Below, in pieces: positions 24,178 through 30,704 of a stretch of DNA of 32,000 nucleotides. The position numbers and the translations under genes are program-made. This DNA comes from Candidatus Hadarchaeales archaeon (lineage in GTDB: Archaea > Hadarchaeota > Hadarchaeia > Hadarchaeales > Hadarchaeaceae): assembly GCA_038823825.1 (NCBI GenBank), contig JAWBCC010000002.1:150001-182000 (forward strand). The letters run 5' to 3'. The notes under the pieces were generated by a model. It saw only the letters and a program-made list of their open reading frames with translations, was not told the DNA's origin and made no database searches. The number at the start of each line of letters is the position of its first letter. The stretch's first letter is position 1.

Positions 24178-24252
24178 CGGAAGGCTTTAATCCTCACCTA
24201 AACCATCACTTATTTGAGGCTAGACCCGAGGGGTAATCCCGAGGGTCGGAAG

Positions 24253-26472
24253 TTGGCGTACATAAAAGAAATTCAGATGAAAGGCTTCAAGTCCTTTGGC
24301 GTTAACAAGGTAGTTATTCCTCTTGCTCGTGGCCTCAATGTCATAGTCGGCAGGAATGGTCATGGCAAGAGCAACATCGCTGACGCCATCGTCTTCGCCT
24401 TCGGAGGAAGGAGCACAACGATGATGAGAGCGGAACGTTTTCAAGATTTCCTTTATATGAGGGATGGCAAGATAATCGCCCCATACGCTGAGGTCACACT
24501 GGTAATCGACAACTCCGACGGTGCGCTCCCCATAATGTCCAAGATGGTCGAAATATCCAGAAGGGTCGACAAATCCGGTAAATGTGTTTATCGGATAAAT
24601 GGAAAGCGAGCCGATCGCCATGAAATCGTGGATATTTTATCTCCAGTGATGGGATCCCCCGACGGGATGAACTTCGTCCTTCAAGACCAAGTTAAGAGGA
24701 TATTTTCTCTCACGCCGGAGGAGCGCAGGGAAATCATAGAAGATCTTGCCGGTGTAAAAGAGTACAACGAACGGAGGGAGAAGGCAGAGAAGGAACTCTT
24801 GGATGTTGAGAACAATATGCGCGTGCTTGATATTCGCATCAAGGAAATTCGATCTAGGGTGGAAACACTCAGAAAACAGGCTCAAGACTGCATAGCGGCA
24901 AAATCGATAGACCGCGAGCTTCAGCAGGTTCGTGGCGCGCTTCTGTTTAAAGAATTGAAAGAAAAGGAGAGGGAGTTAAAGAGGCTGGAATCCTCTCTGC
25001 GTAAAATATCCTCTGCAGACAGAGAAAGCAGAAACAAGCTAAACAAAATAAAGAAAAAATTGAGTGAGCTGGAGAGAGAAAAATCCAGAATTCAAGCGAA
25101 ACTCGATGAGCTCGAGCACCGTGGAGTACTTGCGAGGTTCAAGGAACTTGAGATAAAAATCGAAGAACAAAAGCGTCAGCTTGAGGAAATATCTAGAAAA
25201 AGTCGCAACGCAGAGGAGGAGTTACGCAGGCTGGAGGAAGAGTTAAACGCAAGGGCAGATTCATTTGCTTCCAGCATAAAAAATGTGCGCGAGTTGTACG
25301 ACAAATTCAAGCAACTCCTTTCAGAACTCTCCGGACAATCTGAGCTCACTTGTATCAAAGAGACCCTAAATCAGATTTCTAACGTGCTCAATCAAATTGA
25401 CAGATTGCTTGAAGAAGTTTTGTCGGAGATCCCCTCCGTCACTTCAGAAAGCTCCGAGTTGGCTAGACAAGTTCTTAACCTTCAGGGTAAGCTTTCCGCA
25501 TATAGGGGAGAGGAGGAGAGGATAAAAAGTGAGATAGACGGCAACATAAGAAAGCTCGAGTCGATGAAATCTGCTAAGGAGAAAACGGAAAAAACGATCG
25601 AGCGGCTGAAGAAGCGTTTAAGTGAGATTGAGGAAAAGATGAGGATACTAAACGCACAGAATGAAAACATCCGCGACAAGCAATCAGCGATTGCGGAAAA
25701 GAAAGGTACTCTCGAAAGTCGCAAGGTTTCCGCACAACAGGAGATAGTCAAGCTGCAGGAAGAACTATCAAAAATCAAGGTCGACTACAGTCACCTTCTC
25801 GTGAAAAAGCTTGAAACCCTTAGGAGGATGGAAGCAGAACTTTTTGAGCGTAAATCGCAGATAGGTGAGGTGAACCCAAAAGCACCGGAGGAACTCCAAC
25901 AGGAAGAGAAAAAGCTTTCTGAGGAGGAGGAAAAATACCGCAGACTCGAGGAGGAAAGACAACAGATACTCTCGTTCATGGCAGAACTCGATCAAAAGAA
26001 AAAAGACGCTTTCTTCAAAGTATTTAACGTCGCGTCGCAGGCTTTTTCAGAAATTTTCAGGGAAATTTCTGGAGGAGCGGATGGAAAACTCATCTTGACG
26101 AATCCCGAGAACCCATTTGAGGGTGGGCTAGATTTTGATGTAGACTTTGGCGAGAAGACGAGAATGCTTTCCGGCGGACAGAAAACATTAACCGCGGTCA
26201 CATTTTTGCTAGCTCTTCAAAGATGTCGTCCGTCAACCTTTTACGTCATGGATGAGATTGACGAAAGCTTGGATCCTTTTAACCGCCAAAGAGTCGCCCG
26301 ACTTCTGAAGAAGTTCTCAAGAGAATCTCAAATGATCGTCATCACGCTTCATACTTCTATGGCAGAGGTTGCGGACAGAATATTCGGAGTCGTCAAGGAA
26401 GATAAGGTTTCAAGGGTGTTTTCTGCAGACCTTTCAATGTTAAGGGAGGAGGTAGCAGATGAACCTCAGTGA
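24253..26472 (+). CDS. smc: SMC-family ATPase, unusually short (about 740 aa) and apparently hinge-less
   Basis: N-head: AYIKEIQMKGFKSFG, Walker A GRNGHGKSN, LQDQV..ERREIIEDLAGV. C-head: signature LSGGQKTLTAV, Walker B FYVMDEIDESLD, H-loop VITLH. About 410 aa of E/K/R/L heptad-rich sequence lies between them. The ORF track starts at TTG 24214; TTG 24253 aligns with the canonical SMC N-terminus, and ATG 24274 would remove the first beta-strand. Confidence 0.8.
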   Translation: MAYIKEIQMKGFKSFGVNKVVIPLARGLNVIVGRNGHGKSNIADAIVFAFGGRSTTMMRAERFQDFLYMRDGKIIAPYAEVTLVIDNSDGALPIMSKMVEISRRVDKSGKCVYRINGKRADRHEIVDILSPVMGSPDGMNFVLQDQVKRIFSLTPEERREIIEDLAGVKEYNERREKAEKELLDVENNMRVLDIRIKEIRSRVETLRKQAQDCIAAKSIDRELQQVRGALLFKELKEKERELKRLESSLRKISSADRESRNKLNKIKKKLSELEREKSRIQAKLDELEHRGVLARFKELEIKIEEQKRQLEEISRKSRNAEEELRRLEEELNARADSFASSIKNVRELYDKFKQLLSELSGQSELTCIKETLNQISNVLNQIDRLLEEVLSEIPSVTSESSELARQVLNLQGKLSAYRGEEERIKSEIDGNIRKLESMKSAKEKTEKTIERLKKRLSEIEEKMRILNAQNENIRDKQSAIAEKKGTLESRKVSAQQEIVKLQEELSKIKVDYSHLLVKKLETLRRMEAELFERKSQIGEVNPKAPEELQQEEKKLSEEEEKYRRLEEERQQILSFMAELDQKKKDAFFKVFNVASQAFSEIFREISGGADGKLILTNPENPFEGGLDFDVDFGEKTRMLSGGQKTLTAVTFLLALQRCRPSTFYVMDEIDESLDPFNRQRVARLLKKFSRESQMIVITLHTSMAEVADRIFGVVKEDKVSRVFSADLSMLREEVADEPQ

Positions 26473-27139
26473 CCAGCCAGTTCAGGAACTCGTGGAGCTC
26501 GTTCGATTGCACAAATTGAGTCCCTGGGATGTTGATATTTCAAAGCTCATATCAATCTACAGAGCAAAACTCAAGCAAACAAACGAAGTAGATCTTCGAG
26601 TTCCGAGCAGAGTAGTACATTCTTCGGCAACTCTTTTGAAAATAAAGTCGGAAATAGCAGTCCGTGGCGAGTCCGAGGTGACGAGCGAGGAAATCGAAGA
26701 GATGTTAAACATAGAGTTACCGGAGCTTGGCGAGCTCACGATAGAATTCTTTGCTCCCCAGAGGATAACCTTGGAAGACCTTTTGGGTAGTCTCCGCGAG
26801 GTTTTGGCAACCATCCCTGAGACCAAGGAAAAGAAACCGGTGAAAAGAGAGGAGCTCAAAGTTGATATTCAAAGGGACATAGATGCGATGCTTTTGAGGT
26901 GGATGGAAGATCTCTTACTCAAGATAAAAAAGATAGTCAATGAGGGAAAGACTCCCACCTTTTTCTCCCTACTCTCTGAGAAATCTCGCGTGGAGTTCGT
27001 TAGGGTTTTTCTAACCCTGATTTTTCTGAGTTCAGACGGAAAGATAAGATTGGAGCAGTCGGAACCTTTCACAGATATAAAGATCGAACTTCTGGATGGT
27101 GAAAAAGATGGGAATACGGGAGGATCTAGTGGTTCTTGA
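26459..27139 (+). CDS. scpA: Segregation and condensation protein A (kleisin)
   Basis: N-terminal LVELVRLHKLSPWDVDISKLISIY...ATLLKIKSE and C-terminal winged-helix FVRVFLTLIFLSSDGKIRLEQSEPFTDIKIEL match the ScpA pattern. It overlaps the smc stop by 14 nt. Confidence 0.75.
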   Translation: MNLSDQPVQELVELVRLHKLSPWDVDISKLISIYRAKLKQTNEVDLRVPSRVVHSSATLLKIKSEIAVRGESEVTSEEIEEMLNIELPELGELTIEFFAPQRITLEDLLGSLREVLATIPETKEKKPVKREELKVDIQRDIDAMLLRWMEDLLLKIKKIVNEGKTPTFFSLLSEKSRVEFVRVFLTLIFLSSDGKIRLEQSEPFTDIKIELLDGEKDGNTGGSSGS

Positions 27140-27614
27140 AGGCGCGCTTTATGCAAGCGATCATCCTCTTACAATCGATGAGATCAAAAAAATTCTGAGC
27201 ACAGAATCGGACACGTATGTTATACAGCTTTTGGAAAAGATAGAGCAGAAGCACAAAAAGGTGGATTCTCCCTTTGAGCTTCAGAAGTTGGGAAATGCTT
27301 ACGCTATAAAGCTGAAAGGAAGGGTTAAAGAAAAAGTTGCCCCTCTAATGCCAAAGATAAAGATCTCGACTGGTGCGCTGAGAACACTCGCGTTGATCGC
27401 ATATAAACAAAATATAACGCTTGCTAAACTCGCAGAAGTGAGGGGGAACAGAGCTTACGAACATGTGAGACAGCTCGTCGCGGCTGGCTTCGTCGAGTCC
27501 AAACCTCTTGGAAAGACACGCGTGCTTCGCACGACCAAAAAGTTTGCGAGTTATTTTGGCCTCGAGGATGACATGGATTTGATAAGAGAAAAACTAGAGG
27601 AACTGCTGAAATAG
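27096..27614 (+). CDS. scpB: Segregation and condensation protein B
   Basis: [21 protein letters not shown] and [24 protein letters not shown]...[11 protein letters not shown] are the tandem wHTH signature of ScpB. It overlaps the scpA 3' end; an alternative start is ATG 27108. Confidence 0.8.
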
Positions 27615-27661: not shown

Positions 27662-28057
27662 ATGGTCGTTTGGCATGGAAGATCCTTAAAGAAGCCGACG
27701 GGCGGAATCCGCAGGATGAGCAGAAAGAAGAGAAAGAGAGAAATCGGCCGAGAGTTTTTAGAACCCACGATTGGTCCGAGAAAGCTCATAAAAGTAAGAG
27801 TTAGAGGAGGGAACTATAAACTCAGGCTTCTCTCTGCAGACTATGCCAACGTTTTTGATCCGAGGACGGGGAAGGCGAGTAAGGTCAAAATAATCTCCGT
27901 TGTAGAAAATCCTGCAAATCCGCACTTCTCCAGAAGAAACATCCTAACAAAAGGAGCTATAATAGAGACTGAAATAGGCAGGGCGAGGGTGACAAGCAGA
28001 CCAGGCCAGAATGGCGTTGTCAATGCGATTTTGATCGAGCAAGTCTCCGAGGCTTGA
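27662..28057 (+). CDS. rps8e: 30S ribosomal protein S8e (eS8)
   Basis: [12 protein letters not shown]....[11 protein letters not shown]...[13 protein letters not shown]....[43 protein letters not shown] matches the eS8 family end to end. Confidence 0.92.
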
Positions 28058-28448: not shown

Positions 28449-28482
28449 TCCATTAATAACTCCCTAGGCAGTTATTTCTTTG

Positions 28483-29292
28483 ATGGCGAAGGCTCAGATA
28501 ACCCTCACACCGCCCGAGTCCAAGCGCTTAATCGCAATGGCAGTTGTCAGATTGTCTGAGGTGAAAAAAGCGCTGAAAGAGGGGATTGTTGTTGTCTGTT
28601 TGGGCACGACGAACGCTTTTGTCGCTCAAGAGCTCTGCAAAAAATCCGTGGACCCGAGCAGGTTTGCAGCAGGAGTTATTCTCCCGCAAGGAACATGTGT
28701 TATCCCAAAAGAGCGAAGGATGAAAGAGTTCGTATTTGTCAAGGGAAAACTGACGGAAATGGGTTTGGACGATGTTCTTCCGAAACTTGGCCCATCAGAT
28801 GTTGTGATAAAGGGAGCGAATGCGCTGGACCCAAGCTGGACAGCTGGGATTTTTCTAGCTTCCGAGACGGGAGGAACCATCGGGAAGATCCTCGGAATCG
28901 TCAGCTCAAGAGGGGTGAAACTAATAATCCCAGTTGGTCTCGAGAAGTTCATACCAAGCTCGATAAAAGAAGTTGCTCCGGAGACAGGGATATTCGGATT
29001 CGACTACAGCACGGGAGTCCCCGTTGGTTTAATCCCCATATCCGGGCGCGTAGTTACGGAGATTGAGGCCGTGAAAATTCTGACGGGAGCGGATGCGAAA
29101 GTGATGGGCGCGGGTGGTTTGAGTGGCGCAGAGGGAAGTGTCACCTTGCTCGTTTCTGGCTCAGAGGAGCAAATCGTCAAACTTCAAAAGATTGTGGAGA
29201 ATATAAAAGGGAAGATTCGTTTCCCCGAGATAACGGTGAACTGTGAGGAATGCTGGCAGGAGAGGTGCGGAAAGAGGAAATCAATGAGATGA
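28483..29292 (+). CDS. Conserved-looking hypothetical protein (alpha/beta, Gly-rich), function unknown
   Basis: Long uninterrupted ORF with a protein-like composition and alternating beta-alpha pattern (IVVVCLGTTNAF, DVVIKGANALD, VKLIIPVGLEKF). C-terminal CEECWQERCGKRK. No family recognised by eye. ATG 28483 is one codon after the track's TTG 28480. Confidence 0.6.
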   Translation: MAKAQITLTPPESKRLIAMAVVRLSEVKKALKEGIVVVCLGTTNAFVAQELCKKSVDPSRFAAGVILPQGTCVIPKERRMKEFVFVKGKLTEMGLDDVLPKLGPSDVVIKGANALDPSWTAGIFLASETGGTIGKILGIVSSRGVKLIIPVGLEKFIPSSIKEVAPETGIFGFDYSTGVPVGLIPISGRVVTEIEAVKILTGADAKVMGAGGLSGAEGSVTLLVSGSEEQIVKLQKIVENIKGKIRFPEITVNCEECWQERCGKRKSMR

Positions 29293-29556: not shown

Positions 29557-29805
29557 ATGAAGATTTTAGGAAAAGTTCTGCATAAGGGATCTAAAGGTCT
29601 GATAATCAAATGCACGTTCGTTCCAAAGCTCGGCAAACCGGTTTTCGATGGCAGAAAGAGGCGGGTAGGCGAGATTAGCGACATATTCGGACCTACCACA
29701 GAGCCATACGCCGTCATTAAAACAGCTTCAGAAATCGATCCTTCAAATCTTCTCGGTTCAACAATATATTATGAGGAAGAGGGGGTGGAAAAACGGAGGA
29801 AATAA
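29557..29805 (+). CDS. gar1: H/ACA ribonucleoprotein complex subunit Gar1
   Basis: [19 protein letters not shown]...[31 protein letters not shown] closely follows the archaeal Gar1 pattern (LGKVLH...G.i.DvFGPv..PY..iK). The ORF track starts at GTG 29533; ATG 29557 matches homolog N-termini. Confidence 0.85.
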
Positions 29806-30704
29806 TCCCATGCCCCGCCTGTGGTTCGAAAAAGAATATCCGGGATTATAATCGCGGGGAGATCGTCTGCGCAAATTGCGGTTGTGTGATAGAGGAAAAG
29901 CTCGTGGATCTCGGACCGGAGTGGAGGGCTTTCGATGAGGAGCAGAGGGAAAAGAGGGGGAGAACGGGGGCTCCAATGACTTTGACGATCCATGACAAGG
30001 GGCTTTCGACCATGATTGACTGGAGGGACAAAGATTCTCACGGGAAATCTTTAACACCGAAGAGAAGGGCCCAGATTTATCGTCTTAGGAAATGGCAGAG
30101 AAGAATAAGGGTTTCGGATGCAATGGAGCGTAACTTGGCTTTTGCTCTCTCGGAGATAGACAGGATGGCTTCCCAGCTAGCTCTGCCGAAGAACGTCCGT
30201 GAGACGGCTTCGCTAATCTACAGGAAGGCGGTTGAGGAGCGCCTCATAAGAGGGAGGTCTATCGAGGGCGTGGCCGCCGCCGCCCTATACGCCGCATGTA
30301 GAGAATGTAAGATTCCCAGAACTCTCGACGAAATCGCGGAAGTAGCCCGAGTGGGTAAAAAAGAGATCGGGCGCTGTTATAGATTCATAGCCAGGGAATT
30401 GCTTATCCATTTGAGACCGACAAGTCCGATCGACTATGTCCCACGTTTCGTTGCAGAGCTTGGTCTCAGCGGCGAGGTTCAGACGAAGGCGATAGAGATC
30501 CTAAAGGAAGCACAGGCGAAGGGAATAACGTCTGGAAGAGGTCCGACGGGGGTTGCAGCGGCAGCAGTTTACATAGCCAGCGTTCTTTGTGGTGAGAGAA
30601 GAACACAAAGGGATGTGGCAGAGGTTGCGAGGGTCACGGAAGTCACGGTGAGAAATAGGTACAAGGAATTAGCGGAGAAATTAAATCTCGACGTCGAATT
30701 GTAG
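29802..30704 (+). CDS. tfb: Transcription initiation factor TFB (TFIIB)
   Basis: Two cyclin-fold repeats and B-finger/linker ([33 protein letters not shown]). The in-frame upstream sequence encodes the Zn ribbon CPACGS...[10 protein letters not shown], so the true start must precede 29811. No ATG/GTG/TTG exists in that open stretch, so the start is set provisionally at ATA 29802 (ATAA overlap with the gar1 stop). The ORF-track GTG 29886 would delete the ribbon. Confidence 0.88.

Follow-up and report, generated by a model that had tools for sequence, protein, structure and literature searches.

A complete smc-scpA-scpB operon encodes a short Smc

In a 32,000-nucleotide (nt) stretch of Candidatus Hadarchaeales DNA (contig JAWBCC010000002.1, positions 150,001 to 182,000; hereafter, the window), three co-oriented genes encode an SMC-type ATPase, the kleisin ScpA and the kite subunit ScpB, and the SMC protein is unusually short, with no detectable hinge (Table 1). 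The initial annotation of this DNA had described a complete smc-scpA-scpB operon, and this description holds: the reading frames and their overlaps (14 nt between smc and scpA, 44 nt between scpA and scpB) were read directly in the DNA, and ScpA and ScpB match their families above the cutoffs. ScpA matches PF02616 with 42.0 bits (cutoff 24.6) and the C-terminal winged helix of Rad21_Rec8 at amino acids (aa) 165–210 with 25.9 bits against 22.7 (6e-6), and NCBIfam ScpA models cover aa 6–97, the N-terminal domain, as well as aa 100–213. ScpB matches PF04079 (2.3e-33, 115.5 bits, profile positions 3–157 of 160) and scores 97.1 bits with TIGR00281, above the equivalog cutoff of 89.2. The sequence GGGAGGAGG lies upstream of the scpA ATG.

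The list of open reading frames (ORFs) gives smc as the mechanical ORF 24214..26472, which begins at a TTG at 24214 and yields 752 aa. While this frame is correct as such, translation probably begins at the TTG at 24253, giving 739 aa, because a GAGG precedes it by ~9 nt and the resulting protein opens with MAYIKEIQMKGFKSFG, as does homolog P0002, whose N terminus (MAYIKE) is the same as that of the product from 24253.

Table 1 Features of the smc-scpA-scpB locus. Positions refer to the window; Smc residues are numbered on the 752-aa ORF.
Feature	Position	Strand	Description
Short hinge-less smc	24253..26472	+	739 aa from probable TTG start
N-terminal half of ATPase head	24253..24765	+	aa 14–184; Walker A, R-loop Arg, Q-loop Gln; invariant alignment columns
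Walker A GRNGHGKSN	24349..24375	+	aa 46–54
Ascending coiled-coil arm	24766..25245	+	aa 185–344, 160 aa; AlphaFold2 helices
Tip module (helical hairpin in place of hinge)	25246..25449	+	aa 345–412
Apex turn SGQSE	25330..25344	+	aa 373–377; sole mid-model non-helical stretch (AlphaFold2 model residues 360–363)
Descending coiled-coil arm	25450..25998	+	aa 413–595, 183 aa; AlphaFold2; joint-like breaks at ~aa 520–533 and 550–557
C-terminal half of ATPase head	25999..26472	+	aa 596–752; includes D-loop and H-loop region VITLH
Signature LSGGQ	26167..26181	+	aa 652–656
Walker B FYVMDE	26239..26256	+	aa 676–681
scpA (kleisin)	26459..27139	+	226 aa; PF02616 and Rad21_Rec8 matches
scpB (kite subunit)	27096..27614	+	172 aa; PF04079, TIGR00281
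rps8e (ribosomal protein S8e)	27662..28057	+	conserved downstream neighbour, outside the complex; anchors the synteny argument

The head of the short protein is of the SMC type, as initially annotated. All of the motifs quoted at that time (KGFKSFG, Walker A GRNGHGKSN, LSGGQ, Walker B FYVMDE and VITLH) are found in the sequence, Pfam SMC_N matches residues 16–732 (5e-55), and the best match in the PDB is the Pyrococcus Smc head 5xei (9e-101), which Foldseek also retrieved with the AlphaFold2 model (2.7e-31). The catalytic motifs (Walker A, Q-loop, signature LSGGQ, Walker B DE and D-loop) are invariant across 19 aligned family members. The arginine and histidine of the Walker A motif, which had been singled out as atypical, both occupy variable x positions of GxxGxGKS (family consensus GxNGSGKSN) and are present in only part of the short family, so they are not functionally alarming. 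In the H-loop region VITLH (aa 711–715, nt ~26344–26358), the residue following the conserved T-L is histidine in the subclade of the window protein and arginine elsewhere in the short family, as in P0013, and also in Thermococcus Smc.

Among NCBIfam families, TIGR02169 (archaeal Smc, SMC_prok_A) is the top match by a wide margin with 484 bits, and it outscores the bacterial TIGR02168, placing the protein with the archaeal-type Smc. The score lies below the curated TIGR02169 cutoff of 729.4 bits because the middle third of the protein is missing, and the relatives P0017 and P0013 (608–625 bits) also fall under it. Scores with the other families are all far under threshold: 82.6 bits with the ASRP model (NF045487; cutoff 300), 62.8 bits with the best Rad50 model (cutoff 700) and 62.5 bits with RecN (TIGR00634; cutoff 407.85). 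NCBI labels the window protein and its cluster 'AAA family ATPase', since they score under the SMC equivalog cutoffs.

The short Smc family lacks a hinge and a zinc hook

The hinge is regarded as essential to SMC proteins and as one of their defining features, serving as a constitutive dimer interface, as a DNA-binding site and as a proposed DNA entry gate; more recently, it has been seen as a gate for obstacle bypass. In the window protein, ~411 aa separate the two halves of the head, in agreement with the ~410 aa of the initial annotation, and the hinge family PF06470 gives no match at E ≤ 0.1. A hinge-model match inside residues 185–595, which had been named as a finding that would overturn the hinge-less assignment, was sought and not found. 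None of 19 family members matches PF06470 at E ≤ 1, while the controls P0069 (Aenigmarchaeota) and P0023 (Thermococcus Smc) match at 2.8e-36 and 1e-34, respectively. A custom hinge profile hidden Markov model (HMM), built from 65 full-length relatives and run with filters off (--max), gave each hinge-bearing control 160–240 bits and no short protein more than 0.4 bits. Among 45 family members, none has a CxxC zinc hook in its arms, consistent with the reported absence of such a hook from the window protein; the segment 185–595 of the latter holds two cysteines, C226 and C380, rather than the one initially counted.

Proteins of 810–838 aa that matched the family profile in one stretch were at one point taken as hinge-less, but their sequences hold a normal hinge, and they are short-armed SMCs of the DPANN type. 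A normal hinge is kept in P0069, P0085, P0287, P0305, P0322, P0332 and P0352, SMCs of Aenigmarchaeota and other DPANN archaea that are only ~800–840 aa long.

Arm length is fixed and tip length varies

Two AlphaFold2 models, one of the window protein (predicted local distance difference test score, pLDDT, 80) and one of its 35%-identical relative P0013 (pLDDT 77), both consist of a head and a single long antiparallel coiled coil with a plain helical turn at its far end and no hinge. The N-terminal half of the head is 46% identical to that of Thermococcus Smc, and the C-terminal half 42–44% identical to those of canonical Smc proteins. Segment lengths measured over 45 family sequences show that the ascending arm has 160 aa in 41 of them and the descending arm 181–184 aa in 43, while the tip between the arms ranges from 57 to 103 aa (68 aa in the window protein). 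Arm length is tightly constrained, and tip length is free to vary. The arms had been put at ~60 percent of the normal length; instead, the arms proper comprise ~160 and 183 aa, to which the tip hairpin is added.

The tip is flanked by paired breaks, which are also hot-spots of insertion and deletion, at ~aa 345–350 and 407–415. In the P0013 model these breaks are low-confidence loops of 8 and 16 residues, and the tip hairpin is therefore a separate module. The apex had been placed near residue 415, at SEIPSVTSESSE, but the chain of the window model turns at SGQSE, and the turn of the P0013 model (residues 378–380) falls in the homologous column; SEIPSVTSESSE (aa 404–415) corresponds to the C-side break flanking the tip module. 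We did not retain a mapping of the deleted arm residues from TIGR02169 or BLAST boundaries, as coiled-coil segments align promiscuously and gave overlapping stretches.

The two helices of the tip differ in their hydrophobic pattern. The pattern of the N-side helix is a regular a/d one; the C-side helix combines a/d positions (385, 388, 392, 395, 399, 402 and 406) with a third conserved apolar stripe (384, 391 and 398), so that 21 aa hold 8 conserved hydrophobic positions, where the arm averages 4.1. The same density is reached elsewhere in the arm only at the head-proximal neck (aa 192–212), which in canonical Smc is the segment that binds the kleisin N-domain. Because the hydrophobic pattern of the tip is conserved and has twice the density of the arm, we give a slightly better than even chance to the idea that the tip has taken over dimerisation from the hinge.

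The short smc is the smc ortholog of Hadarchaeota

Protein database searches returned 23 proteins of 714–773 aa without PF06470, ranging from 100% down to ~33% identity to the window protein, several of them labelled Hadarchaeales or Hadesarchaea. In the 90%-identity cluster of the window protein, over 10 NCBI accessions come from separate Hadarchaeales metagenome-assembled genomes (MAGs), on contigs of up to 250 kb, and all are 739 or 752 aa long. The initial annotation had called for a survey of related genomes for a short smc beside scpAB, and when one genome was scanned for each GTDB species, the short gene turned up in ~25 Hadarchaeota species, with 21 complete copies of 719–772 aa and an overall range of 706–773 aa for the architecture; in the same scan, smc genes of Bathyarchaeia, Odin, Thor (Asgard) and Nanoarchaeia encode 1,129–1,194 aa. 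An exhaustive profile search of 1.84 billion representatives yielded only about a dozen 50%-identity clusters of the short type, one of which includes a fragment from an MSBL1 archaeon.

Gene order ties the short gene to canonical smc. All Hadarchaeota loci that reach far enough have scpA, scpB and rps8e downstream of the short smc, and in most of the Bathyarchaeia, other Thermoproteota and Asgard loci examined, a hinge-bearing smc of ~1,180 aa heads the same scpA-scpB-rps8e string. The head halves are 42–47% identical to Thermococcus Smc, the same level as with the remotest members of their own short family, and in a neighbour-joining tree of head domains the short archaeal forms are monophyletic (87 of 100 bootstraps) and lie inside the archaeal SMCs. 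No other ORF of SMC length occurs in the window, and no second SMC-like ORF was found in the window and the 83 loci searched. The short smc is neither an assembly artefact nor a paralog, and we hold with high confidence that the window protein is a functional, orthologous Smc that lacks a hinge. The simplest history, as far as these sequences suggest, would be a single internal deletion in the ancestor of the phylum.

Two entries with conflicting affiliations were also inspected. The best canonical match, P0245, was considered as a hinge-bearing Hadarchaeon and set aside: its ScpA shares only 27% and its ScpB only 37% identity with the window proteins, outside the Hadarchaeota ranges (32–47% and 44–62%), so it probably belongs to another lineage. 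Locus L015 (JASEGJ010000002.1), titled 'Candidatus Hodarchaeaceae', an Asgard family, carries a short smc of the Hadarchaeota type, and the neighbouring ScpB and S8e match those of the window at 52% and 63% identity, compared with 42–48% for S8e in genuine Asgard loci. The title is probably a naming or binning slip between Hadarchaeaceae and Hodarchaeaceae.

The genome scan also returned 14 genes from Solirubrobacterales (Actinomycetota) with products of 789–829 aa that match the short family end to end (L026 5998..8424; also L025, L029–L032, L035, L036, L038–L040, L043, L045 and L048). The one gene examined, that of L026, has no hinge and sits between rnc and ftsY/ffh; the place between rnc and ftsY is the classical bacterial smc position. 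Its product scores 622 bits with TIGR02168, above the bacterial Smc cutoff of 567, and the Solirubrobacterales hinge-less Smc is a very abundant family in soil metagenomes. The Solirubrobacterales form is a clade of its own, and it groups with the archaeal short forms in just 9 of 100 bootstraps of the head-domain tree. Hinge loss has occurred at least twice, in Hadarchaeota and in Solirubrobacterales, and descent of the archaeal and bacterial hinge-less forms from a common hinge-less ancestor appears unlikely from their head sequences.

A proposed smaller Smc-ScpA ring closed at the tips

Among the explanations considered, the one we favour, and judge to be probable, is that the short protein is the Hadarchaeota Smc ortholog, made hinge-less by deletion, kept under selection together with ScpA and ScpB, and dimerising via its tips. 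In this model, an internal deletion in the phylum ancestor would have removed the hinge and the distal ~40–50% of both coiled-coil strands, after which the gene would have been maintained under selection along with the genes for the kleisin and ScpB. Two protomers would be joined at their far ends by the tip hairpins, most simply as a four-helix bundle, and ScpA would connect one head, at its neck, with the other, at its cap. The ring closed in this way would be smaller, its arms measuring ~25–29 nm where canonical arms measure ~47–50 nm. The intact heads would couple ATP binding and hydrolysis to DNA capture and translocation, as in canonical Smc-ScpAB.

Previous work on engineered B. subtilis Smc bears on this model. 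A Rad50 zinc hook can replace the hinge in Mini-Smc and Smc(Zh), Smc-ScpAB works with shortened arms of particular lengths, and natural arm lengths fall into discrete classes with minor modes near 163 aa (Mol Cell 2017, PMC5344682). The fixed arms and variable tip of the Hadarchaeota protein fit this result, since in B. subtilis the arms are tuned in length for function, whereas the distal dimeriser need not have a particular fold (PMC5344682). More tentatively, and with somewhat less than even likelihood, the tip could be a novel minimal module for SMC dimerisation, derived from the coiled coil itself upon hinge loss, in a complex that would still be a DNA-entrapping or loop-extruding motor on ~25–29-nm arms.

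Several observations weigh against our favoured explanation. Tip-tip association is argued from hydrophobic-pattern statistics only, and the sequence identity of the tip (0.36–0.40) is no higher than that of the remaining arm (0.42). The extra apolar stripe could instead serve to bind a different partner, or it could pack back against the arm. In vitro, six archaeal ScpA/ScpB pairs did not interact (PMC7055376), so ScpB may not be a subunit of the complex despite the overlapping genes. In addition, according to Supplementary Table 3 of a recent preprint, most of the Hadarchaeota sampled have an SMC5/6-related SMC and an Nse1/3-like kite, with scores of 5/5 for the ScpB-like kite, 4/5 for the Nse1/3-like kite and 3/5 for the SMC5/6-related SMC (bioRxiv 10.1101/2024.01.07.573240). 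According to the same study, which does not mention the missing hinge of Hadarchaeota Smc, Hadesarchaeon WYZ-LMO6 has two separate SMC-kleisin-kite triplets, on contigs QNVD01000244.1 and QNVD01000245.1, the second operon comprising an SMC5/6-related SMC, an Nse4-like kleisin and an Nse1/3-like kite, apart from the condensin-like one. The hinge-less complex may therefore share its cell with a second SMC complex and be freed from some functions.

Alternatively, the protein could be a functional hinge-less Smc-ScpA in which the tips do not dimerise, the two protomers being held only by ATP-dependent head engagement and the kleisin bridge between neck and cap, with the arms free. Such a complex would act as a head-proximal DNA clamp, with the kleisin compartment only, and not as a closed two-armed ring. 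The short Smc has no hinge, hook or other recognisable dimerisation domain, and both the unremarkable identity of its tip and the poorly constrained tip length agree with free arms. However, the strict conservation of arm length is hard to explain without a distal attachment, a two-stranded coil has no need of the third hydrophobic stripe on the C-side tip helix, and B. subtilis Smc requires some distal dimerisation module together with tuned arms (PMC5344682). We regard free arms as unlikely.

The second SMC complex suggests another possibility, namely that with an SMC5/6-related complex present, Smc is a relaxed or re-purposed remnant that is no longer a loop-extruding organiser and has a narrower role, such as DNA bridging or repair. 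The kite and SMC counts of the preprint and the two triplets of WYZ-LMO6 support this idea (bioRxiv 10.1101/2024.01.07.573240). It is nevertheless improbable in our view: the heads, their motifs and the arm length are conserved throughout the phylum, down to ~33% identity, the scpA-scpB operon is kept everywhere, many TACK and Asgard archaea own both complexes and still have a full-length, hinge-bearing smc, and the independent hinge loss in Solirubrobacterales took place in the classical rnc-smc-ftsY slot.

Membership of the gene in one of the short SMC-like families already known (ASRP/ClsN/Sph, Rad50/SbcC, RecN or Lamassu LmuB), with scpAB beside it by coincidence, is very improbable. The size of ~740 aa and the hairpin architecture are alike, and there are weak matches to ASRP, Rad50, RecN and the PADLOC models LmuB and mad3; these PADLOC matches were discounted as head similarity only, the gene lying in a housekeeping operon. 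Against this, the scores fall far below the family cutoffs given above while TIGR02169 reaches 484 bits, the CxxC typical of ASRP and Rad50 (PMC9389158) is absent in all 45 members, and the gene occupies the ancestral smc slot beside scpAB, in positional orthology with canonical smc. The initial annotation had named membership of such a family, with a separate canonical SMC serving ScpAB, as grounds for rejecting a hinge-less Smc, and the cutoffs and position both speak against it. Assembly collapse in the coiled-coil region, or a pseudogene, has a negligible probability, as the a priori risk posed by repetitive E/K-rich sequence is all that favours it. A longer allele is excluded, the length being the same in ~25 species genomes and in over 10 independent MAGs. 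The architecture recurs in over 40 sequences that are non-identical (33–100% identity) and come from assemblies and sequencing projects independent of one another; all are intact ORFs, and their N- and C-arm lengths are fixed within a few residues.

With its positional smc ortholog hinge-less throughout, this archaeal phylum offers a natural minimal SMC. It makes testable which SMC activities need the hinge, whether arm length is the conserved mechanical parameter and how a coiled-coil tip can substitute as dimeriser. If the tip is indeed a dimerisation module, nature would have repeated the laboratory result at least twice independently, in Hadarchaeota and in Solirubrobacterales, and possibly in marine Actinobacteria: the fold of the hinge is dispensable, while arm length is not. 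At 739 aa, and with Thermococcales as its nearest full-length Smc relatives among those compared, the protein may suit structural work. Genome surveys relying on 'AAA family ATPase' labels may wrongly score Hadarchaeota as lacking Smc.

Other features of the window

The surroundings of the operon in the 32-kb window are those of an ordinary archaeal chromosome, with genes for ProRS, HisRS, STT3/AglB, RadA, TFB and ribosomal protein S8e and four tRNAs. Downstream of rps8e, a conserved protein of ~270 aa, whose gene adjoins a DUF488 gene, is encoded at 28480..29292 (+) and, in a relative at 42% identity, at L001 14252..15055; it has no significant Pfam match. A TFB zinc ribbon (CPACGS...CANCGC) is encoded at 29775..29886, in frame upstream of the first canonical start of the TFIIB ORF 29886..30704. 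No ATG, GTG or TTG follows the preceding stop at 29772–29774, and a GGAGG at 29795–29799 is followed by ATA ATC, which suggests either a sequencing error or the use of a non-canonical initiation codon. The TFB gene at the syntenic position of a related Hadesarchaeon (805 aa; L001 15705..18122, L002 11292..13709) holds an intein with a LAGLIDADG domain; the TFB of the window has no intein.

Comparison with known systems

The closest known system is canonical archaeal Smc-ScpA(B) of Pyrococcus and Thermococcus (5xei, 5xns, 4i99; TIGR02169), which has the same head fold, ATPase motifs and neck/joint region as the window protein and the same gene order, smc-scpA-scpB(-rps8e). Compared with canonical archaeal Smc (~1,180 aa), the window Smc is missing the ~170-aa hinge and ~140–170 aa of each distal arm strand, so that its coil has ~160–190 residues per strand against ~330–340. 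SMCs of Aenigmarchaeota and other DPANN archaea (e.g. P0069) resemble it in overall length and in arm length (~160 aa), but they keep the hinge, with a PF06470 match of 2.8e-36 for P0069 and 180–240 bits on the custom hinge HMM.

Other SMC-superfamily ATPases share part of its architecture. The ASRPs (ClsN/coalescin, Sph1/2; Front Microbiol 2022, PMC9389158) are likewise archaeal, ~600–800 aa long and composed of an SMC-superfamily head and a coiled coil without an SMC hinge; they differ in having a zinc-hook CxxC at the apex and no ScpAB partners, whereas the window Smc has no CxxC and adjoins scpAB. RecN, Rad50/SbcC and the short Lamassu LmuB also dimerise at the far end of the coil without an SMC hinge, and some short LmuB proteins have no CxxC (PMC12663957). 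These proteins belong to other head subfamilies, with which the window protein scores 50–63 bits against cutoffs of 400–1,087, and RecN, Rad50 and LmuB have other partners (Mre11/SbcD, LmuA/C) and no kleisin/kite operon, while the neighbours in the window are scpA and scpB, not mre11.

The engineered Mini-Smc and Smc(Zh) are laboratory constructs with a proven dimerisation domain, whereas the Hadarchaeota tip is natural and a putative dimeriser. Natural counterparts are bacterial. A 2025 metagenomic study described, from AlphaFold models, an abundant clade of hinge-less SMCs in marine Actinobacteria that have no CxxC and do not co-occur with a regular smc (Environ Microbiome, PMC12153180). The initial annotation knew of no characterised hinge-less SMC with ScpAB partners; this stands insofar as the study reports no ScpA/ScpB linkage, arm-length analysis or archaeal case, but hinge-less SMCs as such had already been modelled there (PMC12153180). 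Like the window Smc, the marine actinobacterial and Solirubrobacterales proteins have true SMC heads and a coil that simply turns back, with neither hinge nor CxxC, and they, too, apparently replace a regular smc rather than accompany it. They differ in their size of 790–830 aa and in occupying the rnc-smc-ftsY slot, the marine proteins being compared by description; the Solirubrobacterales and marine forms may or may not be the same clade. The Hadarchaeota complex is a variant of a known machine and no new kind of system, joining hinge-less SMCs already reported in silico.

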